Positions 1-12,539 of a stretch of DNA of 13,150 nt are shown piece after piece. The stretch is from NCBI GenBank assembly GCA_044359815.1, contig JBIKLL010000074.1, forward strand, positions 1 to 13,150. The letters are read 5' to 3'. Below the pieces are notes generated by a model that saw nothing but the letters and a program-made list of their open reading frames with translations, did no database searches and was not told where the DNA came from. Within the stretch, counting starts at the first letter, position 1, and each line of letters begins with the position of its first letter. A program made the translations under genes and the position numbers. The DNA comes from Pseudobdellovibrionaceae bacterium (GTDB taxonomy: Bacteria > Bdellovibrionota > Bdellovibrionia > Bdellovibrionales > Bdellovibrionaceae).

Positions 1-300
1 CGTAAATGCAAAGATAATTTTTTTCACTATTTTTAGACACTCGCTAACGGCCGCGGGCTCATCTCTCGTATTGAGTCATTTAGATTAGTCAGTTTTTCGA
101 TTAATTACTTAATTATCATAAAACAGACTAATCTAAATGACTCAACACCAGATATGCCCCGCACGCTCGCTGCATGTGTCTAAAAACAGTAAAAACAAAT
201 TACCTTTGCATTTATGCAATACGAGAGATGAGCTTGCGGCCGTTAGCGGGTATTCACAAGATGTAAATCATAGACATATTTTTAAAATTTAAAATTACCG
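1..300. repeat. Nested palindromic repeat element, copy 1 (left part cut off by window start)
   Basis: 1-81 aligns to 1610-1690 and ~135-300 aligns to ~1718-1885 with few differences. Internal inverted repeats are 1-40/176-216 (stem B), 43-73/217-247 (X/X', 29/31) and a 75-nt central hairpin at 71-145. Confidence 0.95.
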
Positions 301-345
301 AAGCCTGATATGGCAGCTTCTAGGTTATTGGAAATTTTTTTGATG

Positions 346-837: not shown

Positions 838-1485
838 ATGAGAAATTTAATAGCAATCAGCACTGCTGTGATTTTTATAACAACAGGATGTGCTACATCG
901 GATAACAAAAACACAATGAAGGGTGCTGGTATCGGAGCTGCCGCCGGAGCGTTGGTGGGCGGAGTCCTGGGGCATCAAAGCGGTAAAAGAAACGAAGGCG
1001 CATTGATTGGGGCAGCTATTGGTGCAGCCATTGGTGGTAACGCAGGTCACAGAATGGACAAGCAGGCTAAGGAATTGGAGCGCATTGCTGAAACCAAAAG
1101 AACCGAACAGGGTTTGGTTACAAAATTAAAAAGCGATATTTTGTTTGATACCGGTAAGGCTGACCTAAAGCCTGCAGCTAAAAGCAATCTGAAACAAATG
1201 GCTGATATTATGAAAAAGTATCCTGAAAATGTTTTGACGATAAAGGGCTACACAGACAACACAGGATCATTGAAGGTTAATGAAGAGCTGTCGCAAAAGC
1301 GTGCTGAAGCTGTTCGAGGGCAACTGATCGCATCGGGCATGCCCGAGTCTGTGATGGCTTCAAAGGGCATGGGTCCCAGTGAGCCGGTGTCTGACAATTC
1401 ATCCAATGAAGGCCGCAGCAAAAATCGCCGTGTCGAAATCGAAGTCACCGTCGATCCATCCAAGGTCCCACCCGAGAAAAAATAA
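838..1485 (+). CDS. OmpA-family (YiaD-like) lipoprotein with glycine zipper and C-terminal OmpA-like peptidoglycan-binding domain
   Basis: Lipobox ITTGC and glycine-zipper repeats (GAGIGAAAGALVGG, GALIGAAIGAAIGG). OmpA C-terminal motifs ILFDTGKA, GYTDNTG, NEELSQKRAEAV and NRRVEI. G-rich RBS upstream. Confidence 0.95.
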   Translation: MRNLIAISTAVIFITTGCATSDNKNTMKGAGIGAAAGALVGGVLGHQSGKRNEGALIGAAIGAAIGGNAGHRMDKQAKELERIAETKRTEQGLVTKLKSDILFDTGKADLKPAAKSNLKQMADIMKKYPENVLTIKGYTDNTGSLKVNEELSQKRAEAVRGQLIASGMPESVMASKGMGPSEPVSDNSSNEGRSKNRRVEIEVTVDPSKVPPEKK

Positions 1486-1511
1486 ATCTGATTTGCGCGC
1501 TCCCTCATCTA

Positions 1512-1885
1512 CGGTAATTTTAAATCTTAAAAAATATTTCTATGATTTTATACCTTGAGAATACATTTGCGAGCGCGACGTTTAATTTTTCGCCGCATAT
1601 CTCGTGATGCGTAAATGCAAAGGTAATTTTTTTCACTATTTTTAGACACTCGCTAACGGCCGCGGGCTCATCTCTCGTATTGAATCATTTTATAAAAGCA
1701 ATTTTTTTGCTTTTATAAAATGACTCAACACCAGATATGCCCCGCACGCTCGCTGCATGTGTCTAAAAACAGTAAAAACAAATTATCTTTGCATTTATGC
1801 AATACGAGAGATGAGCTTGCTGCCGTTAGCAAGTATTCTTAAGGTATAAAATCATAGAAATATTTTTTAAGATTTAAAATTAACG
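1512..1885. repeat. Nested palindromic repeat element, copy 2 (complete; MITE/REPIN-like, non-coding)
   Basis: Stem A is a 53-bp terminal inverted repeat, 1512-1564/1833-1885, with 2 mismatches. Stem B is 1608-1649/1759-1801 and stem C is 1680-1701/1707-1728. Degenerate pairing extends out to about 1488/1907. The element fills the gap between two convergent genes. Confidence 0.95.
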
Positions 1886-1903
1886 AATACGAGAGGGGGC
1901 AGA

Positions 1904-3103
1904 TCAGCTGGCTTTTTTCTTGGTGAAGGCCGCCAGGAAAGTTTCGATAGGCTGAGGCTTTCCATATAGATAGCCCTGACCATACTGACATTGCATGTCC
2001 TTTAAGGCCTTGGCCTGAGACTTTTCTTCGATGCCTTCGGCGATCACCGCCAGGCCCAGGTCCTTGGCTATGTTGGCAATGGATCTGCACAAGATCATGG
2101 ATTTTTCGTCGACCATCATTTTTTTAACAAAGCTTCTGTCGATTTTTATAAAATTAAATTGCAGCTCAGACAGGTAACTAAGTGATGAATAACCAGTTCC
2201 AAAATCATCCAGGGTGACGTGAAAACCCAGTTCGTGAAGTTTCTTGATGCAATTGATTGCAAAGGCGCCATTCAACAATACGCCCTCGGTGATTTCCAGC
2301 CGCAGGTCTTTTCTGTCGATTTTTTGTTCTTTGACAGCAGATTCCAGATCGTTGAAAAAATTAGGATCCTGAAACTGCCTGCCAGAAATATTGATGCCCA
2401 CGTAGAATTTTTTCCCGTAGATTTTTTGAAAGGCCTTCAGGTCTTTGCTGGCTTGATTGATCACCCATCTGCCAATAGGAACAATCATCGAAGTTTCTTC
2501 AGCAATACCCATAAAAATATCTGGTGAAACCAATCCGCGACTGTGGCTTTGCCATCGGATCAAGGCCTCGACACCAATCAGTGCTTGGGTTTTTAAATCA
2601 ACTATGGGTTGGTAAAACAACACAAAATGATTTTTTTCCAGAGCTTCCAGCAGCTCGCTTTCAAACTTAATTTTCTCCATCACGATTTTTGGATCTGCAG
2701 GGGAGACCGGTTTGTTAAATGATTGCACCATATCCAAACCAAAATTATTTTGGCTGATGGATTCATTGTTAGATCTGATGCGCTTTAATAAAATCATCAG
2801 CAGCAATCGGACAATCGAGTCGGCTTTTTCAACACGCTCTTGCACTTGGCTTTGAAACACCACAGTCAACACACAATCTGTAAAGGCCCGGGCTGTGGCA
2901 GATCTGCGTCTGCCGTCGATGATTGCCATTTCACCAAAAATTTCACCTTCTGCAAATATACTCAAGGGTGTTTCTACGCCTTGAGCTTCTACAAAAATTT
3001 CCACCTGACCCTTGTCAATGATGTAAGCGCAATCTGCATTATCACCTTGATTAAAGATTGTTTGTCCGGCTTTGAATTTTGTCTTTTTAGTAAAGGCGCT
3101 CAT
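1904..3103 (-). CDS. cNMP-binding domain + EAL domain c-di-GMP phosphodiesterase (Bd1971-like architecture)
   Basis: N-terminal cNMP motif FGEMAIIDGRRRSATARA. EAL motifs YQPIVD, EALIRW, INIS, LEITE, DDFGTGYSS, IKID, AEGIE and QGYLY are all intact. Confidence 0.95.
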   Translation of the reverse strand: MSAFTKKTKFKAGQTIFNQGDNADCAYIIDKGQVEIFVEAQGVETPLSIFAEGEIFGEMAIIDGRRRSATARAFTDCVLTVVFQSQVQERVEKADSIVRLLLMILLKRIRSNNESISQNNFGLDMVQSFNKPVSPADPKIVMEKIKFESELLEALEKNHFVLFYQPIVDLKTQALIGVEALIRWQSHSRGLVSPDIFMGIAEETSMIVPIGRWVINQASKDLKAFQKIYGKKFYVGINISGRQFQDPNFFNDLESAVKEQKIDRKDLRLEITEGVLLNGAFAINCIKKLHELGFHVTLDDFGTGYSSLSYLSELQFNFIKIDRSFVKKMMVDEKSMILCRSIANIAKDLGLAVIAEGIEEKSQAKALKDMQCQYGQGYLYGKPQPIETFLAAFTKKKAS

Positions 3104-3329: not shown

Positions 3330-3608
3330 ATGTCTAAAAAATTTTTGTATATGGGTAATTTGCTAAGACAAAGCAGAATTGACAACCGCTTCACTCAAGA
3401 TTCGCTGGCCGAACAGTTTGGGTTCGGCGCTCAGTTGGTTTCCAATTGGGAACGGGGAGTGTGCTCGCCACCCGGAGACATTTTCTACAGTCTGATTAAG
3501 ATTTTAAAAATAAATAAAGAACAACTCGTCAACGTCATGGTCGAAGACGCCAGGGATCGCATCGAGCAAAAAATTGATTCTTTAATGAAAACCAAAAAAC
3601 GAGCCTGA
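3330..3608 (+). CDS. XRE/Cro-CI family helix-turn-helix transcriptional regulator
   Basis: LRQSR..FTQDSLAEQFGFGAQLVSNWERGVCSPP matches the HTH_3 pattern. Confidence 0.9.
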   Translation: MSKKFLYMGNLLRQSRIDNRFTQDSLAEQFGFGAQLVSNWERGVCSPPGDIFYSLIKILKINKEQLVNVMVEDARDRIEQKIDSLMKTKKRA

Positions 3609-6413
3609 GTTTTTTATTTTCTGAACAGCCGCATGATAAGCCAGTTTCAGTGCAATACCGGTGTGACCGTTGAGGCTGGCAATTTGGTAGGCCGAAAGAC
3701 CCTTGTTGGTTTTTAGTGACAGATTTATCCCAGGATTATTTAGTAATAAATTAACCGTTTCCCTTTGTCCTTTTTGTGAAGCCAAAATCAAAGCGGTCCT
3801 GCCGTATCTGTCTTGGGCATTGATGCTTAAGGTTTTGGATTCTAAAAGTGTTTTAATCGCATCCATTGAATTTCGTTCGATCGCTGCCATCAAAGCATTA
3901 TACCGTTTAATTCGATTGCTTAGATTAATATCTGTTCTTTTGTCAGCCAGCAGTCTTTTGATGATTTCTGATTTATCACTTTTTGCAGCTTTGATCAGTG
4001 ATGTGTCTCCCCATTTATCTGCAGCATTAGGATCAGTGGCCTGGTGGTTCAGCAACATATCTGTTGTCTGCAAAAAACCTTCATGGGCGGCAATCATCAA
4101 TCCAGTGTTTCGCTTGCTGTCCCAATGACTGACGTTGATCTGTGGATGACTCAGCAAGATTTTTACAACAGGGACATTGTCCAATCGTATGGCGTCCAAC
4201 AAGGCGCTAGTGGCAGATTCATTTTTAGCATTCACGTCTAATTCTGGATGCGACAGTAATGTTGCTACGATTTCAGCAGACCGATTGACCGAACACATCA
4301 GGGCCGTGATCCCAAAAGTATTTTTTTGATTCACACTAATATTGGGATAGCTTAACAAAAATTTTATCATTGGGACCGAGCTCTGTTCAGCAGCCAGCAT
4401 CAGTGGGGTTTTGTTGTGAAAGCTTTCGTTGATTTCAATCAGCTTCATATCCAGTAAAGCTTTTGCCACCGTGATGTTATTATATTTTAGGGCAGTTATA
4501 ATCAGGTTTCTAATTTTGTGATGCAGTTCAAGCTTTCTTTTGTCGGCAGATTTATTAAGTTGTTTTAGTTCTGAAACAATCTGCGTTTTCTCAACTGCCG
4601 AAAAATTTTCGCCTTCCAAAGCTAAAATCAAATCTTCATTTTGACTTAGCAGCAGTGATTCAAACAGGGCTTGCTTACGGACTTTTAAGCTCAGATTTTT
4701 ATCCCTGACAATCATATCCAGATTATTGATAAATTCATTAAAGATCTGCGCATTGTTCAAAGCCTTTATGGTTTCACCACCAGCTATGTATTTTAAAATA
4801 TCTCGGTCTTGGTTTGAATTTTTCAGTGTCAGCAGTTCCTGAACCAAGCTTCTGGCATCAGTTTCTGGGTTTGCCCATTTGGGTTGGTAATCAAAGCCTG
4901 GATGGATTTCTACATCTGTGCTTTTGCTCAAAGGTTCAAACAAAACCAATAGGGGCTTTAGATAAGCCCTGGAATACATATTTTCAAAATAGTACTGATG
5001 GGGGTGGGGTTCAAATCCAACTAGGGGTTCAGAATTTATTTTTTTAATCACTTCTGATTCAACATACTGTCTGGTTGAATCCATATTTGAAAGCCCATTG
5101 TGATCCCCAACGTCCTTAGGTAAGGCCAATCTGTAGCCTTTTTCAGAAACCGACAAACTGATGGCTTGCAAAAAGTCCTTAATCAATCTGTTTGGGATAT
5201 TTTGAATCTTATCGACAAAGGCGATTTTATAAATGGATCCCGCTTTGTCTTTTGCAGATCCTAACACCACTGTGGCTTGCCCGGTGGATTGGTTTTCAGA
5301 ATTAGTCATCGTAAAATAATTAAAATTGGGATCAAGAGCCTTTTTAAAATAGGTCCGGCTTGAGCAATCAGATCCACCCAAACATGATCGAAACGGGGCT
5401 TCCTGAATCGACAATGAGCGCACACGGATTTTTTGAACAGGCAGCACCTTGGTGTGACCATTTAAAATTTCTTGTTCGATTTCAAAAATTTGTTTTGATT
5501 CATCAATTGTCTTTCCTAAAAACGAAGGGGCCTCGATATTTAGGATTTCCAGCATTGATTTAAAATGCCCGGTAAATCCCAATTCCATGGCCATGCTGTC
5601 ACGTTCAGACAAAATTTTATAAAGGCCTTCGATTCTTTCGATGGCATTTTTGCTTTTAAGCAATTCTTGAGTGGCCTTGTTGTTAAATCCCGTAGTGGCG
5701 ATCAGATCAACGATGGCCTGACGCAAAAACTGGGTATTCCTGCCGTTTTTAGTTTGCTGTTTCAGCAATTGGTTGAACACGGCATACAGGGTTTTGATTT
5801 TAAGTCTGTAATCAATCATGTCGTCTTTGAGCAGCTCTCGGTTTTTGTATGAAATCAATCGATTGAAATACCTGTAAAATTTCAGATAAAAATTGTCTTG
5901 GATCTGGATTTTTTCGATTTTTGAAATTCCTGGGGGATAAACTGGATCCGAAAATCCAAAAAGCTTTTTCCAAAATCCAATGTTGGCATCGATAATAAAT
6001 AAATTGGATCTGATTTTACCAGCGTTGGCATTGAGCGATCGTAATAAACGATCCAAGGATTCAGGCGAATCATAAATTTTTTGAACCAACACGATTTCGT
6101 ATTCTCGAAAATGCGGTTTCTTCAGTTCGGGATGATCGCGCAGCACTGCGTGCACGTCGGCTAAACTGTTTTCTAAAAAAGTCAGCGTGTAGTCGCCAAA
6201 ATAAATTCGTTTATAGAACTCAAACAGGTCTTCTTGGTGGGGATGTAACAACAAGCCCTCGGTCATCGCCTGCGAAAAGGCCTTAAGCTCAGAAGGTGGC
6301 TTTGCACCAGCAGGATTAAAGCTTTCCTGGCACAACAGATCCTGTTGTGAGGTGGCCACCGCTAGGGGAGCTAAAGCTAAAATAAGCAGGCTCAATACAA
6401 CCGGTTTAATCAT
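3582..6413 (-). CDS. Exported 943-aa protein with an unassigned N-terminal region and about 9 C-terminal ankyrin repeats
   Basis: Signal peptide MIKPVVLSLLILALAPLAVA with GGAG upstream. Repeats of 33-35 aa (TPLMLAA, TALMCS, SALLDA, TGLMIAA, TSLIKAA, NALMAA, TALILAS, SAYQIAS) are encoded at about 3630-4508. Confidence 0.9.
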   Translation of the reverse strand: MIKPVVLSLLILALAPLAVATSQQDLLCQESFNPAGAKPPSELKAFSQAMTEGLLLHPHQEDLFEFYKRIYFGDYTLTFLENSLADVHAVLRDHPELKKPHFREYEIVLVQKIYDSPESLDRLLRSLNANAGKIRSNLFIIDANIGFWKKLFGFSDPVYPPGISKIEKIQIQDNFYLKFYRYFNRLISYKNRELLKDDMIDYRLKIKTLYAVFNQLLKQQTKNGRNTQFLRQAIVDLIATTGFNNKATQELLKSKNAIERIEGLYKILSERDSMAMELGFTGHFKSMLEILNIEAPSFLGKTIDESKQIFEIEQEILNGHTKVLPVQKIRVRSLSIQEAPFRSCLGGSDCSSRTYFKKALDPNFNYFTMTNSENQSTGQATVVLGSAKDKAGSIYKIAFVDKIQNIPNRLIKDFLQAISLSVSEKGYRLALPKDVGDHNGLSNMDSTRQYVESEVIKKINSEPLVGFEPHPHQYYFENMYSRAYLKPLLVLFEPLSKSTDVEIHPGFDYQPKWANPETDARSLVQELLTLKNSNQDRDILKYIAGGETIKALNNAQIFNEFINNLDMIVRDKNLSLKVRKQALFESLLLSQNEDLILALEGENFSAVEKTQIVSELKQLNKSADKRKLELHHKIRNLIITALKYNNITVAKALLDMKLIEINESFHNKTPLMLAAEQSSVPMIKFLLSYPNISVNQKNTFGITALMCSVNRSAEIVATLLSHPELDVNAKNESATSALLDAIRLDNVPVVKILLSHPQINVSHWDSKRNTGLMIAAHEGFLQTTDMLLNHQATDPNAADKWGDTSLIKAAKSDKSEIIKRLLADKRTDINLSNRIKRYNALMAAIERNSMDAIKTLLESKTLSINAQDRYGRTALILASQKGQRETVNLLLNNPGINLSLKTNKGLSAYQIASLNGHTGIALKLAYHAAVQKIKNSGSFFGFH

Positions 6414-6579: not shown

Positions 6580-7506
6580 TCATGGGGTCAGGCTGTGGAC
6601 TTTAAAAAATCTGTAGGGCGGAGTTCCGGCTACAAAATTAACGGTCTCTATTTGGGGGACGATAACCACATCAGAAATTTTTTGGATTTCGATCAAAAAC
6701 ACAGTGGTGGTTTTGTAAGTGGTTTTGATTTGGTCTTTGATGAGTATTTGGTGTTTGATTCCCCGAACCTGATCGAACAAAAATTTAACTGAATTCTGGC
6801 TGCCACTGATTAAATTTAATCTGTGATCAAAAATTTTGTCAGTGTCGATGTCTTTGGGTGCTCCTTCGGTGACTGTATACAAAAATCGAAGCTTGGCGTT
6901 TTTCTTAAGCAGTTTAAAATAAATATTTAAAACTTTGTCCAAATCTGAGGTGTAACTGATGGGTCCAAAAATATCAGTGATCAAATCAGCCTTGTTTTGA
7001 AAGGGTCTGATCTGTTCAGATAAAAATTCGCTTTCAATGTGGTTTTCCAGATAACCGGTTTCCAGGTATTTGATCCGCCCATTGGATTCAGTTTGCAGAG
7101 CGTGGATGTTTAGGCCCATGGGGGCTGCAAACGACAGTCCCAGCATTTGTGAAATGTGGTTAAAGCGGGGATCGCTGAAGACTGTTTTAAAAGCCGCTCC
7201 ATAGCCTGCACCCGCATCAATCCAATATGAATTTTTGGGTAAATTCTGCAGAGTCTGATCCAGGCTTGCGATTTCTGGTTCCAATCCCAACAGACGATTG
7301 TATTCGGCAAAACCTCGGTTGGTCACAAAGCCTCTGTTTGAGGTTAATTGTTCCCTGGTATTTGACAGGTGGTAATTGATTTCGTCCTTTGAAAATACAA
7401 ACTCATCCAGATTTAAAGAATAATCACAGTGCGTGGGATTGGTCGATCCAGAGGCCGCAGTGAAAATCAAAAACAAGAATGAAAATACAGGTGTAAACAT
7501 ATCCAC
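6580..7506 (-). CDS. Class I SAM-dependent methyltransferase-like protein with N-terminal signal peptide (start may be the ATG at 7500)
   Basis: Motif I-like WIDAGAGYG, motif ADLITDIFGPISY and motif LLKKNAKL. Hydrophobic N-terminus MFTPVFSFLFLIFTAA. Confidence 0.75.
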   Translation of the reverse strand: MDMFTPVFSFLFLIFTAASGSTNPTHCDYSLNLDEFVFSKDEINYHLSNTREQLTSNRGFVTNRGFAEYNRLLGLEPEIASLDQTLQNLPKNSYWIDAGAGYGAAFKTVFSDPRFNHISQMLGLSFAAPMGLNIHALQTESNGRIKYLETGYLENHIESEFLSEQIRPFQNKADLITDIFGPISYTSDLDKVLNIYFKLLKKNAKLRFLYTVTEGAPKDIDTDKIFDHRLNLISGSQNSVKFLFDQVRGIKHQILIKDQIKTTYKTTTVFLIEIQKISDVVIVPQIETVNFVAGTPPYRFFKVHSLTP

Positions 7507-7639: not shown

Positions 7640-8509
7640 ATGAATTCGGTCGGGATCAACGCAAAATTCTGGGCACTGGCAATCTGCTTGTTCAGTATAA
7701 TAGGTGTCTTCAGCATAGAGGCTGAGGCAGGTGATAGTGGTCCCAACCGTTGTGAATTTGCGTTTTATGAACCAGCTCACCCCGTATCGAATCGGTTTTT
7801 TGAAAATCGTGACAGGCTGGATGCTAAATCCCTAAATCATCTGCAGGAGCTGTTTGCCAGCAGGGATCCGGATCGTTATGAAAAAGGCGCCAGGTTTTTT
7901 ATCCTGAAACAGCTTGAAGCTCTGGGTTTGGCGGGGGATTCAAAGCTGATCCAGAAATTGGAATCACTTAAAATCACCTATGGTGATGAGACCGCTTTTA
8001 GAGCTGATGAAATCAAAATCATTTTGCCTGAAAGTTTGCGTGAAACTGCTGTGCCTGGATTTATATTAGCCCATGAACTGCAACACAATATCCAAAGGTA
8101 TAAGTTCAACCCGAACTCTAGGTATTTAATAAATGTATTAAAGAATGCTCAGGCATTGTTGGTTCATGATGTCTTGTACCGCAATGAATACGAGGCCATG
8201 TTGTCAGAAAAAGCTTTTTTGGATTTATTGTCGGTAAATGATATCTATAAAACACTAGATGCCGTTGAAGGGTCCGAACTAAAAGGGCATTTAAAATATT
8301 TCCTAGTGACTTCGCTCAGACAGGTTAAACAGCCTTGGGAAAATTATCTGGAAACCCAGTTTTGGGATATTGCTAGGTATGAACCCGAAATGCTCAGGAC
8401 CGAGGTCAACGTCAATCGGTTTAAATTTGCGTCCTACGGTTTTATGTTTGGCGGTACCTGCATGGCCTACATGTTCCCCGAGACCTTAAGAAGTCTTTTG
8501 GGACTATAA
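7640..8509 (+). CDS. Exported hypothetical protein with HEXXH motif (putative zinc metallopeptidase)
   Basis: AAGGA RBS and a signal peptide ending AEA. ILAHELQHNIQ is followed about 35 aa later by NEYEA, a possible third zinc ligand. Hydrophobic C-terminal segment. Confidence 0.75.
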   Translation: MNSVGINAKFWALAICLFSIIGVFSIEAEAGDSGPNRCEFAFYEPAHPVSNRFFENRDRLDAKSLNHLQELFASRDPDRYEKGARFFILKQLEALGLAGDSKLIQKLESLKITYGDETAFRADEIKIILPESLRETAVPGFILAHELQHNIQRYKFNPNSRYLINVLKNAQALLVHDVLYRNEYEAMLSEKAFLDLLSVNDIYKTLDAVEGSELKGHLKYFLVTSLRQVKQPWENYLETQFWDIARYEPEMLRTEVNVNRFKFASYGFMFGGTCMAYMFPETLRSLLGL

Positions 8510-8530: not shown

Positions 8531-9550
8531 CTAATCGCAGATTGAAAATTTGCTGGTGTCAGTCCTGCGGGTCAAGCTGTCTGTGTCTGATTGGGTGCCC
8601 AGTCTTAGGCTGGAAGTGCTTTTTAAATGTTCGTTTGTAAAAATATTTTCAGCATTCTTTTGTCCCAGGGACAGTGTCAGCGAGGACTTTTTAAGTTCAG
8701 GCTTTGCTGTCACTTTGATGTCTGAAATTTCGATGGGATTTTCGGGGCTGTTTTCTGGGATTTCCATTTCCAGAATGTATGAGCTTCGGTCCCACTCCGC
8801 CGTGATTGAAAAGGCCTTGTATGACCTATCAGTGAAAGGATTCATTTTGTCATCGAGTCTGAGGCGTCTGGAAAATACCTGCCAGGTGGTTTCTGGATTC
8901 AGACAAACGATTTTCGGATAGGTTACGCGTTCCAGGGTTTTGATGTTGACCAGTTTTAAAACCACAGAATTTTTAACTACATAAATTTGTTTGATTGGCA
9001 GGGGTAAATAGCGATCAGCGACCACGGCATCCACATTGCCAATCAGGCTTTCAAAAATGGACTGAGCATCAAAGGTTTCAGTATCTGTTTTTGCATCCGC
9101 AGTTGATGATTGTATCCCCAGTTCCTGTAGGGTGATTTTGTCAGACAGTTTTAAGGGAACAAAAGATTTATCCAGTTCGGCTTTCATGGCTGTGGCCATT
9201 TCGGCAATGACCTGTTGGTAAAGCTGAGCTTTGACGGTATTAGCATCAACAATAGAATCATCGGCTGGATTGCCAATGGGATTGCCGTCTGAATTTCCAA
9301 CGGCAGTGCCAGTTGAATCAGAGTCTGAGGCCTGTGTTATGCCTTCAGCTGAAATATTTTGTGTGTCTGCTGTGTCGGTGGTGTCGGTGGTGTCAGTGGG
9401 GCTGGACTGATTGGTTGTATCTGCATTGCTTTCCGCACTGTCTGCGGGCTTGGCAGATTGGTCCTGCATGCTGGCCTTTTTTAAGGTGCAGGCTGACAGC
9501 GAGCTGATCACTGCTAAAGCTAAAAAAATATTTTTGTAAGCGGTTGTCAT
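8531..9550 (-). CDS. Hypothetical lipoprotein with Thr/Asp/Ser-rich linker
   Basis: AGGAG RBS and lipobox LSAC. About 80 aa of low-complexity linker precede a globular region I cannot assign. Confidence 0.85.
   Translation of the reverse strand: MTTAYKNIFLALAVISSLSACTLKKASMQDQSAKPADSAESNADTTNQSSPTDTTDTTDTADTQNISAEGITQASDSDSTGTAVGNSDGNPIGNPADDSIVDANTVKAQLYQQVIAEMATAMKAELDKSFVPLKLSDKITLQELGIQSSTADAKTDTETFDAQSIFESLIGNVDAVVADRYLPLPIKQIYVVKNSVVLKLVNIKTLERVTYPKIVCLNPETTWQVFSRRLRLDDKMNPFTDRSYKAFSITAEWDRSSYILEMEIPENSPENPIEISDIKVTAKPELKKSSLTLSLGQKNAENIFTNEHLKSTSSLRLGTQSDTDSLTRRTDTSKFSICD
9362..9397. repeat. In-frame 9-bp tandem repeat x4 in the lipoprotein linker
   Basis: tgtgtctgc-tgtgtcggt-ggtgtcggt-ggtgtcagt, encoding TDT-TDT-TDT-ADT on the minus strand. 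Confidence 0.8.
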
Positions 9551-10128: not shown

Positions 10129-11307
10129 TTGGAAACTAAAATCTGTTTTAAAATATTACTGGCAATAGGATTTGTTTTTTCTGTCGCTTGCACTAAAAAA
10201 TCCGAAGACCTGACCTACACCAATTGCAAACTGCCCATTGCTGATGGGCGTGGTGGTGTGGCCATCGGGGGATTTCCCAGATATTCAGAACGATTGGCAT
10301 CAACAGGTACAGTGAATGCCACAGTTATTTTTGTGGATTTTTCGGATGCTGTGGCCACTCTGACGCCTGCGCAGGCTTTTGCCCTAGTGTCTGGCGCTGC
10401 AGCTACTTTTACCGAACAGTCTTATGGCGAATTGACTTACACGATGACGCCGACCCTGCAATGGTTTCGGATGAACAGCCCCAGTACCTCGTACAATTAC
10501 GCGGGTTCGGGTCACAAAAACTTTATCGCCGAGGCCGTCAGTGTTGCAGACTCAGTGGTTAATTTTGCAAACACAGAGTCGTTGGTTATCATTGTTAATC
10601 CTGATGTGACGTCATTTACAATTGGTCCTGCGATGAATGAAAGTCCCGGCAATGGAGTCACGGCAGATGGGAATGAGATGCTGAATGCCGTAACCTCGGG
10701 CTATGATTTAAACACCTGGGGATCCATTTGGCTGAATCACGAAGTCACTCACAATATGGGGTTGGTGGATCTGTACAGTTACACAAGTACAAGTTACCCA
10801 GCAGTTTTGTATGATATGGGTAAATTTAGTTACATGGGATTTAACAGCTTTACGTCCAATGCGCCCGGACTGACTGCGTGGGAGCGCTGGGTGTTGGGAT
10901 GGTTGGATGATGCGCAAGTGCTTTGCGCAAATCCCAGAATCAGTGGCGAAATCAACACCACGATCACGCCCATTGGTACAGCTGGTGGGCAAAAGGCCGT
11001 TGTCATACCTGTGGGTGAAACCAAGGCCGTTGTTGTTGAATCCTGACGTGCCAGCGGAATTGATGCCAACATCGCAAAAATCGGAGCTCTGGTTTACACA
11101 GTGGATTCATCAATACAATCCGGTAGGGGTGCCATCAAGGTTTTTCCAAAAGGCGGTGACAGCGATCCCTATCACACAACAGCGCCACGAACGACAGGTG
11201 AATCTGTTACGGTTTCTGGCATCACGGTTGAGGTTTTAAATTCAGACTCATCAGCTGGCGACACGGTTCGCATCACTGCCGATAAATTGTGGGTGGATAA
11301 GGAATAA
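10129..11307 (+). pseudogene. M6-family (InhA-like domain) metalloprotease lipoprotein interrupted by an in-frame TGA at 11044-11046
   Basis: Lipobox FSVAC and motifs VIFVDFSD, HEVTHNMGLVDLY, SYMG and AWERWVLGWL. The same frame continues past the TGA (VVES*RASGIDANIAKIGALVYTVDSSIQSG...) into ORF 11101-11307, giving 392 codons in total. Confidence 0.8.
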
Positions 11308-11351: not shown

Positions 11352-12539
11352 TCAATTACATGCAGGGGTTGGCCAAGCTGGTGCGCATTGCGCTTGACCG
11401 CTAATGACTTGACGATTGTAACAGCCCCCGGGGCCATTGGCGCACACATAGTACAAATTATTGGGGCAAATAACTGCCAAATTGCCGTCACCGTGGACTC
11501 CGCCCAGAGTGTCCCCATCGCTCATACAGTCTTGGTCGCTCAAGATAGCAATGGCATTCAGAGTATCAGTGGCTAAAAAAGGCGTGGTTTGCATAATTCC
11601 GTCGCGAGTGACTTTGCCTGATTCGCCGACCATCATAATGGGACTGTCAACGTATCTTTGGATTCCGTTGATTTGACTGGTGCCAAATCCCGATGCCAAC
11701 AAATTCCAACTGCCACTGCCTGTGGCAGAATCTCTGGAAAGCCCATTTTGACCGGCACCCATAGCACGAGACATACCATAGTATGTTGATAAAGTTTTGA
11801 CCCTGCCGGTAAATCCAGCGCCAGGGTTCATGATAAAAGCAGAACTCAATGAAGCATCGTTTGAATACCCAATGGAAGCATTGGATCCAGCCATATAGCG
11901 GTGATCATTATAAAGACCAAAACTGTCTTGTTCAGAAAAAGAAGTGATCGAATAAATATCAGCAAACCCAAAACCCGATGTCATCAACGTCGATGTGAAA
12001 AATGCATTTGAGGATTTAACCATCGTCCCCAGTTTGCCAGCAGCTACCCATCGACCAAAGCGGTTGTGCACATCCAGCAAATCATTAGTGGTTCCCGAAT
12101 TACCAAAGGTCCAATTGATTGCGTCCGACGTTCGCAGGACCACGCCACCATCGCCGACAGCAACCGTCCAATCTCCGTAAGAATCGACTGCATTTAAATT
12201 ATTTGTGGTCAGAGTAGCTACGGGAATCCACACATGGCCGGTTTTACTGATCGAAATTTTTCCGGAATCGCCCACGGCAATCCAGTAATCGTGAGCTGCA
12301 TCCCAAACCACGTCGTTGATGTTGGATCCATTGAAATTTGAATTAAAAACTCGTTGCCAATAATCCAAGGTGCTGCGAGTGCTGATGGCCATCTTGCCAC
12401 CGTTGGCGACGATGACGGCATAGGCGGGTTTTTGATTTACGCCTACAAATCCAAAGGGTGCTGAAAACGGATACTCGGCCTTGATCATCAAGCCAAAAAA
12501 TATCATCCCCACAATACATACAGCAGGCCAAACCCTCAT
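11352..12539 (-). CDS. Exported YCF48/BNR-like beta-propeller repeat protein with Cys-rich C-terminal tail
   Basis: Hydrophobic N-terminus. Repeats of about 40 aa (WIAVGDSGKISISKTGHVW, TVAVGDGGVVLRTSDAINW, WVAAGKLGTMVKSS, MMVGESGKV). Six Cys in the last 58 aa. Confidence 0.8.
   Translation of the reverse strand: MRVWPAVCIVGMIFFGLMIKAEYPFSAPFGFVGVNQKPAYAVIVANGGKMAISTRSTLDYWQRVFNSNFNGSNINDVVWDAAHDYWIAVGDSGKISISKTGHVWIPVATLTTNNLNAVDSYGDWTVAVGDGGVVLRTSDAINWTFGNSGTTNDLLDVHNRFGRWVAAGKLGTMVKSSNAFFTSTLMTSGFGFADIYSITSFSEQDSFGLYNDHRYMAGSNASIGYSNDASLSSAFIMNPGAGFTGRVKTLSTYYGMSRAMGAGQNGLSRDSATGSGSWNLLASGFGTSQINGIQRYVDSPIMMVGESGKVTRDGIMQTTPFLATDTLNAIAILSDQDCMSDGDTLGGVHGDGNLAVICPNNLYYVCANGPGGCYNRQVISGQAQCAPAWPTPACN

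Follow-up and report, generated by a model that had tools for sequence, protein, structure and literature searches.

A nested palindrome in a Pseudobdellovibrionaceae genome as a probable copy of a lineage-amplified family of non-coding hairpin repeats

A long imperfect palindrome that occupies the entire spacer between two converging genes of a Pseudobdellovibrionaceae bacterium is one copy of a non-coding, probably mobile hairpin repeat family of about a hundred copies, and we consider it likely that this family is a lineage-amplified palindromic (foldback) family of the REP, REPIN and MITE kind. The palindrome lies in the window, the whole stretch of 13,150 nucleotides analysed here, which is contig C87 of the source assembly (G000; 2.95 Mb, 125 contigs, 41% G+C, 91% complete). 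The evidence comes from the copies in this genome, from a related strain recovered from metagenomes and from a conserved hairpin core found in other families of the order.

Results

Architecture and fold of the window copy

Positions 1497-1900 form a single long imperfect palindrome with the modules A-Y'-B-X-C-Y-B'-X'-A'. Re-reading of the sequence bore out, within a few bases, the order A-Y'-B-X-C|C'-Y-B'-X'-A' given in an earlier note on this DNA, and coordinates, arms and fold confirm the nested palindromic element with an X/Y module on each strand that it described. The features are as follows.

1..303: second copy of the same composite type, B-X-69-nt centre-Y-B'-X'-A', cut by the contig start (BLAST and module map)
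838..1485, plus strand: gene for an OmpA-family protein with a glycine zipper; stop codon 11 nt before the palindrome
1497..1564, no strand: outer arm A, noted earlier as 1512-1564, with the palindrome extending to 1497; inverted with 1833-1900
1565-1568: linker ATTT
1569..1609, minus strand: Y', the Y module of the outer unit, Y3 variant (motif scan)
1610..1649, no strand: middle arm B, pairing with B' (inverted repeats I3 and I5)
1650-1651: linker TC
1652..1682, plus strand: X module of the inner unit, GG subtype (motif scan)
1683..1725, no strand: apical hairpin C (43 nt), at the centre of the inner unit (inverted repeat I4)
1726..1753, plus strand: Y module of the inner unit, Y1 subtype, opposing X as a mismatched duplex
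1754-1758: linker TGCAT
1759..1799, no strand: middle arm B' (inverted-repeat search, diversity comparison)
1800..1830, minus strand: X', outer-unit X module of the AA subtype, carrying one additional change (BLAST and motif scan)
1831-1832: linker AA
1833..1900, no strand: outer arm A', noted earlier as 1833-1885 and extending to 1900 (inverted-repeat search)
1904..3103, minus strand: converging gene for a protein with cNMP-binding and EAL domains; stop codon 3 nt after the palindrome

The outer arms 1497-1564/1833-1900 (inverted repeat I1) are 68 nt long and 88% complementary, and the three inner arm pairs are 84-88% complementary. The proximal part of arm A, ending ...CCTTGAGAATAC, is common to most copies, and its distal part is specific to each copy; the Y3 variant at 1569-1609 has an additional small AT-rich stem-loop. 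X' is identical to the reverse complement of X at 28 of 31 positions. X and Y are not unrelated modules, a point that adds to the earlier picture: each is a diverged inverted copy of the other, and the duplex in which they are opposed has mismatches at regular intervals. The window copy is a composite, in which a GG/Y1 unit with short arms (B) is centred in an opposite AA/Y3 unit with long arms (A).

Both DNA and RNA folding turn the region 1490-1905 into one hairpin. The DNA fold reaches -123.2 kcal/mol against -42.2 +/- 4.3 in 100 shuffles (z -18.7), none of which folded equally well, and the RNA fold has a z of -20.1. A promoter and terminator scan of window 1400-2000 found no terminator-like sites and two weak promoter-like ones, for which shuffles give 1.4 +/- 1.3. 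The stretch is contained in 24 sequencing runs, all recorded as DNA. In Logan contigs of four runs there are breaks at 1544 and 1853, within the element, whose summed depth is about 50-170 times that of its flanks; the two joints listed among these contigs are single contigs, probably from other copies, and neither an empty site nor a flip could be made out in them. Elsewhere in the window, the minus strand encodes a 943-aa protein rich in ankyrin repeats (3582-6413), near which lie ORFs of about 300 aa without a Pfam match (6580-7506, 7640-8509, 8531-9550 and 10129-11046).

A large repeat family in the source genome

BLAST with the element identified 111 loci in the source genome, 24,424 bp in total or about 0.8% of its DNA; 30 of these loci touch a contig end, and many contig breaks coincide with the family. 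Motif scans returned 121 X modules, 104 of them identical throughout to either of two 31-mers, the AA subtype (56) or the GG subtype (48), and 122 Y modules, which fall into three main forms, Y1, Y2 and Y3, the last with the extra small stem-loop. With these numbers, the possibility raised earlier that only two copies exist genome-wide falls away.

When 241 motif matches were parsed as brackets they gave 84 complete X..Y units, pairing GG-type X with Y1 (41 units) and AA-type X with Y2 (27) or Y3 (13), while 55 of the 73 unpaired motifs lie within 450 nt of a contig end. Simple units have centres of 8, 29, 65 or 77 nt, and other units enclose another unit, so that X/Y does occur at differing nesting depths. 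It also occurs with at least four unrelated stem types, namely the A type, the B type and two further stems, one on contig C48 and one on contigs C10 and C85; both kinds of variation had been proposed as checks on the nested model. Composites of type I, the window's kind, have gaps of 42/43-or-65/46 nt, and those of type II gaps of about 105/26-81/104 nt. Among 20 type-I composites the inner centre measures 42/43 nt in 11, 65 nt in 8 and 12 nt in 1.

Many arms share an outer-end consensus of approximately CTGGCCCACTTGYCTGCGGTTAATTT, recognisable but poorly kept, and solo end-like remnants are present in the genome. We also observed a sister foldback repeat of about 180 bp that has the outer ends of the main family around a different, G+C-rich and asymmetric core of about 55 nt (C101:4331-4514, C109:15397-15580, C104:16887-17050 and C67:about 11900-12093).

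Nesting is mostly inherited

Nested units number 35, and in 34 of the 35 the nested unit is opposite to its host unit. All type-I copies share asymmetric B/B' stems, in which two mismatches are fixed in 31 and 32 of 32 copies, and type-II copies share a conserved asymmetric pair of linking stems. Because each lineage has its own shared, fixed stem asymmetries, the data point to a few nesting events followed by copying of the composites, not to 34 independent events: nesting is real, and mostly inherited from two ancestral composites. The earlier inference that a unit inserts at the apex of another unit's hairpin is therefore upheld in part, in that nested units are opposed in 34 of 35 cases, and has to be amended in part, in that these cases represent two composite lineages, not many independent insertions. 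Short-centre units such as those on C5 and C110 were considered as ancestral empty forms and rejected, since they look rather like products of deletion between short direct repeats.

Conservation decreases from the core outwards

Mean pairwise diversity among 20 complete type-I composites is 0.013 for X, 0.010 for X', 0.033 for Y and 0.096 for Y'; it is 0.037-0.051 for B/B' (0.037 for arm B alone), 0.135-0.153 for proximal A, 0.49-0.52 for distal A and 0.64-0.66 for the flank. X is thus nearly invariant, and the stems vary between copies yet remain symmetric within each. In ungapped comparisons, symmetry between the two arms of a copy is 94-95% over the first 40 nt and falls to 80% at 40-60 nt, whereas the same stretches are 82%, 62% and then 34% alike between copies. 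The inverted arms have a median length of 61 nt.

At 11 of 38 loci the palindrome outruns the similarity to other copies by at least 10 nt, and at 7 of 38 by at least 20 nt; in chosen examples of this overrun the sequence occurs only twice in the genome, once per arm. Locus-specific inverted flanks as a general rule were rejected on the systematic count, which found them at only those 11 loci. Palindromes that overrun in this way may reflect insertion into older palindromes or outward growth of the palindrome. Of the long hairpins in the source genome, 34 fall within element loci and 15 outside.

The core hairpin is found across the order

Searches with the whole element by BLAST in 40 relatives and 181 genomes of the family gave weak AT-rich matches only, among the 3-16 candidates scored per genome; the X pattern had no match in public genome contigs, and plasmid and phage records contained no element match. 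A first covariance model (R1), built from 21 units, identified one diverged copy in another genus (genome G069) and copies in a genome of another family (G226). A second model (R2) was built from the copies found by R1 and short forms of the source genome, and it matched 21 of 150 other genomes of the order at an E value of 0.01 or lower, including G226 and G069, which match by construction; 15 of the genomes had a best E value of 1e-5 or lower. By coded family, matches were found in 8/26 genomes of f2, 8/31 of f6, 3/3 of f9, 1/2 of f4, 1/5 of f8, 0/31 of f1 and 0/30 of f12. Three genomes (G226, G370 and G381) each have at least 23 R2 hairpins, and the source genome has at least seven short-form copies. 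The core hairpin family extends over at least five families of the Bdellovibrio-like order. In other genera X/Y takes the form of hairpins of about 100 nt without the arms of the source genome. The sole, diverged hairpin of G069 (L069:343-1325, on G069:C66) has an AbiEii-type toxin gene and a partner ORF of 96 aa immediately upstream.

The X side of the core reads roughly CGGCCGCA.GTCGTCT..CG.A..GC.TCA and the Y side roughly G.CGC...C.GATACGC..TGCGCG; the modelled hairpin comprises two helices with 17 pairs in all, interrupted by mismatches, and its apex varies. We examined covariation in 37 hairpins from 13 genomes, using 500 shuffles and slid controls, in an alignment fitted to the model. 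Standard pairs make up 94.1% of cells against 79.0% in shuffles, and 87 cells are changed on both sides against 23.8 expected (0/500 shuffles as high in either measure), while slid controls pair at 22-49%. An equal covariation signal in the core can arise from upkeep of symmetry at the DNA level. Within the mismatches, a C opposite T is invariant in 36/36 rows of the core alignment, as is the C of the adjoining, mostly T-opposite-C mismatch (36/36 rows), and an A opposite C is kept in most rows. The earlier idea of a recognition structure would seem to fit such a conserved X/Y hairpin, found as it is well beyond the source genome.

Rfam returned nothing at the gathering score, only sub-threshold matches to microRNA hairpins (window copy and 15 short forms); the earlier note, too, had recognised no named repeat family in the element.

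Copies rearrange between related strains

A metagenome scan with part of X yielded 13 loci, five of which are chance matches without the rest of X. The remaining eight are contigs of a related strain whose flanks match the source genome at 85-98%, and thereby allow orthologous sites to be compared. At two of the eight (L017/C110 and L028/C49) the whole interior is inverted between unchanged A arms, linkers included, and at one (L026/C6) a type-I interior stands against type II in the source genome, the switch falling exactly at the X end. Y2 and Y3 differ at three of the eight sites; the ortholog of the window copy (L019) has a short Y2-like form without the AT-rich insert of Y'. The source genome has deletions at three of the eight (C110, C34 and C73), and only L021/C113 and L027/C102 are unchanged in the part covered. 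No empty site, which the earlier note had proposed looking for, was found.

Since the arms of orthologous copies are nearly identical, the stems are not fast-mutating. The copies rearrange, on the simplest reading by recombination between inverted arms and by copy-to-copy recombination through shared modules.

Candidate mobilising enzymes

In the 91%-complete source assembly, searches found no IS110 (PF01548), DDE_Tnp_1 (PF01609), TnpB or reverse transcriptase match. There is one rve match (PF00665), on another contig and beside no copy examined; there are two Phage_integrase matches of 312 and 324 aa. The sole PF01541 match of the source genome is in a 650-aa ORF, and no Ssn-like small GIY-YIG gene was detected. 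A mobilising gene, which the earlier note had proposed looking for beside X/Y, was not found in this assembly, and five solo ends examined had no transposase beside them.

PF01797 matches in the source genome comprise one RAYT-like ORF and eight paralogues of a 206-aa Y1-like gene. The RAYT-like ORF (C8:9501-10136) encodes 211 aa and scores 72.5 bits with NF047646, below the 80-bit cut-off; the repeat that flanks it in inverted copies is a different one, about 30 nt long and unrelated to X/Y. The arrangement around it (G000:C8:9474-10305) is a classic REP/RAYT one, and the flanking repeat occurs as doublets on many contigs (C106, C49, C116, C28, C32 and others). No R2 hairpin lies within 1.5 kb of the Y1_Tnp genes at 12 loci of about 2-3.6 kb, six from the source genome and six from four other genomes, and G226 has no PF01797 match despite its many hairpins. 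The link to RAYTs and REPINs drawn in the earlier note thus fails on all three counts.

The eight Y1/HUH-like paralogues (C23:201-821, C48:48177-48797, C56:2969-3616, C47:11964-12584, C49:93331-93951, C100:633-1253, C125:2378-2998 and C8:23373-24056) are 87-93% identical to the C49 copy. They were rejected as movers of the element: what they have in common is the coding region plus about 90 nt upstream and nothing else, and they contain neither X/Y nor element ends. Of 80 other genomes of the family, 53 have the gene in several copies, one of them with as many as 27 matches, and X/Y was not found in the family genomes searched. The shared upstream stretch is promoter-like, and the gene family could be a domesticated or unusual transposase family. 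Simple tandem repeats adjoin two of the paralogues (G000:C23:about 1-130 and C125:3235-3549), one being a AACTATCT array and the other an ORF of NQ(P/S)I-type repeats.

At about 45 ends inspected by eye the flanks show no consistent direct repeat, the element ends not being defined to the base; AT-richness is common in these flanks, and where they repeat it is often in inverted, not direct, orientation. That the family moves is an inference, based on how many copies there are and how the family is structured.

Placement at gene 3' ends

Placement was scored with crude ORF calls at the 56 loci that lie at least 600 nt from a contig end. Thirty-five are convergent, 18 tandem and 3 divergent, and none is inside an ORF; by the same crude calls, the baseline for convergent spacers is 18.5% (binomial p 5e-13). 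The copies are thus located at gene 3' ends. Fourteen hairpin loci in other genomes are distributed as 7 convergent, 6 tandem and 1 divergent. Copies in the source genome, like the hairpins in other genomes, are dispersed between unrelated housekeeping genes, and in two other genomes the hairpin clusters enclose housekeeping genes.

Discussion

The location of copies just past stop codons, chiefly between converging genes, raises the question of whether the X/Y core is primarily a functional host element as RNA, for instance a 3'-end stabiliser, a bidirectional terminator or a processing site, with spread being secondary. Such a role would suit a structure kept with compensatory changes across 13 genomes and the invariant unpaired positions of the core, as well as the balance of G.U over A.C on the X-to-Y strand (23 vs 10, p 0.035, with non-independent cells and an alignment fitted to that strand). 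We nevertheless consider it unlikely. The orientation relative to co-directional genes follows no rule (9 sense, 4 antisense, p 0.27), the A arms show no bias of G.T vs A.C (18 vs 27, p 0.23), and there is no canonical terminator-like site in window 1400-2000. Nested units, moreover, carry the core in both strand orientations, only the opposite strand would make a wobble pair of the conserved A.C mismatch, and DNA-level upkeep of symmetry yields equal covariation. A strong A.C excess, taken up at one stage as a wobble bias, was discarded, as it stems from two mismatches inherited by 32 B-type copies.

There are two further readings. If the family were an ordinary MITE, its arms would be the terminal inverted repeats of a DDE-type IS whose autonomous copy is unassembled or lost, and X/Y would be a passenger. 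Many copies do share an outer-end consensus, the sister family combines equal ends with a different core, solo end-like remnants exist, and the assembly is 91% complete in 125 contigs with many breaks at repeats. Yet conservation is lowest at the ends and highest in X/Y, where transposase binding at the ends would predict the opposite; the roughly 45 ends, which are not base-defined, showed no direct target duplication, the five solo ends examined adjoin no transposase gene, and X/Y sits on unrelated stems and, in other genera, in armless hairpins of about 100 nt. On balance we regard a MITE of this ordinary kind as very improbable. The core might instead be bound or cut by a dedicated host enzyme specific for single strands, after the pattern of Ssn nucleases with NTS/dRS3 repeats or of RAYT with REPs, and the repeats would then shape recombination or DNA uptake. 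Invariant mismatches within a conserved hairpin, dispersed copies at tens per genome across an order, and recombination breakpoints at module borders are all consistent with this, but we think it quite unlikely, given that the source genome has no Ssn-like small GIY-YIG gene (PF01541 being confined to the 650-aa ORF), that no Y1 gene adjoins the hairpins and that no candidate partner was found.

We favour a lineage-amplified foldback family. Its basic unit is a hairpin consisting of outer arm, X, variable apical hairpin, Y and outer arm', to which the fixed mismatches in the X/Y pairing give a direction. The family would spread, or once have spread, as a folded single strand whose mismatched X/Y core is recognised by a candidate enzyme supplied in trans. 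A few nestings by insertion at a hairpin apex would have been followed by copying of composites as a whole, later flips would result from recombination between inverted arms, and later swaps from copy-to-copy recombination through shared modules such as X, with hairpin-promoted deletions as a further source of change. A side role as the 3'-end hairpin of flanking genes is possible. Several observations weigh against this account: no mobilising gene was found in the 91%-complete assembly, the RAYT has another REP on its flanks, empty sites were not seen, and no target-site duplication is definable. X/Y is also invariant at loci shared with a strain of 2-15% flank difference, which mobility alone is hard-pressed to explain; invariance at such old shared loci needs either selection on each copy or homogenisation between copies. 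Finally, simple cut-and-paste movement predicts neither the palindrome overrun at 11/38 loci nor the rarity of other long hairpins.

As a more speculative proposal, and a long shot in our estimation, the mismatched X/Y hairpin may be what an undescribed strand-specific enzyme recognises, whether a hairpin-directed recombinase, a transposase or a nuclease, with no relation to RAYT, Ssn or IntI; such an enzyme would place units at hairpin apices and invert or swap them where they stand. If true, the nested 400-bp palindromes would owe their origin to a new hairpin-targeted mobility and not to ordinary recombination.

What is new here is a repeat family outside Rfam with an order-wide mismatched core that is small enough for bench testing. 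It offers a second independent system, beside the CGTC REPs, in which to ask how such repeats spread and why their mismatches persist. In the source genome flips, swaps and deletions alter the family faster than point mutation does, and its repeats and rearrangements matter for the assembly, binning and comparison of uncultured predators.

Comparison with known systems

The Correia (CREE/NEMIS), ERIC and RUP MITEs are non-coding elements of 100-400 bp with long inverted arms, which form long hairpins near gene ends, show internal insertion and deletion variation and have defined ends; Correia and RUP have TA target duplications and a related IS family. The present family resembles these MITEs in being non-coding, in its long inverted arms, long-hairpin fold, proximity to gene ends and internal indels. 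It differs in that its ends are the most variable part and in that no duplication or parent IS was found. The insertion of one repeat into the centre of another palindrome also has precedents, in IS1397 and ISKpn1 within BIMEs and ISRm22 within Sinorhizobium REPs, which are protein-coding IS that occupy palindrome centres with target duplications. Exact centring in another palindrome is shared with IS1397/ISKpn1, but here host and guest are both non-coding, belong to one family, are opposed (34/35) and are mostly inherited as composites. Unlike integron attC arrays, which lie beside IntI and have cassettes between the sites, our copies are dispersed between unrelated housekeeping genes.

A literature search, with most subscription journals outside its coverage, found no description of the element family. 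REPINs are REP doublets associated with the tyrosine transposases called RAYTs, as set out in the available part of Bertels & Rainey 2011 (PMC3116915). Like the REPINs of that part of the paper, the copies are high-copy extragenic hairpins with two inverted, imperfectly matching halves, mostly at gene 3' ends, and they persist in a lineage as several subtypes. The family nevertheless lacks a short tagged REP, an imperfect palindrome of 20-40 nt with a conserved unpaired 5' tetranucleotide such as GTAG, and has no GTAG in its consensus, X and Y are two sides of one hairpin and not separate hairpins as in REPs, the units are much longer (170-400 bp) and nested, and, where REPIN/RAYT systems have a single-copy RAYT gene between their own REPs, the RAYT-like gene here is accompanied by another REP family, with no hairpin near the Y1 genes examined.

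The available portion of Di Nocera et al. 2013 (PMC3733652) gives CGTC REPs a stem of 8-9 bp and a loop of 4-5 nt, together with a short tail and a terminal tag that stays unpaired, and its authors describe them as having no dedicated transposase. To judge from that portion, they and our family are alike in being palindromic, in occurring in many taxa, chiefly between co-directional and converging genes, and in lacking a dedicated transposase. At about 70-100 nt, with mismatches inside it and an apical stem that varies, the core hairpin here is unlike CGTC REPs and lies outside the definition of CGTC/GTAG-tagged REPs given in that portion, which calls for a 5-13-bp stem, a 2-20-nt loop and a terminal tag left unpaired (PMC3733652). 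NTS/dRS3 repeats, according to the part of Chenal et al. 2025 that was available (PMC11893778), are paired with Ssn GIY-YIG single-strand nucleases; they too are many-copy, dispersed small hairpins recognisable by a single-strand-specific enzyme, but relative to the sequences in that part our motifs are unrelated, and no Ssn-like gene was found in the source genome. Taken together, the family acts like REP/REPIN and MITE repeats, yet stands apart from REPIN/RAYT systems, tagged REPs, NTS/Ssn pairs, attC sites and the families of Rfam.
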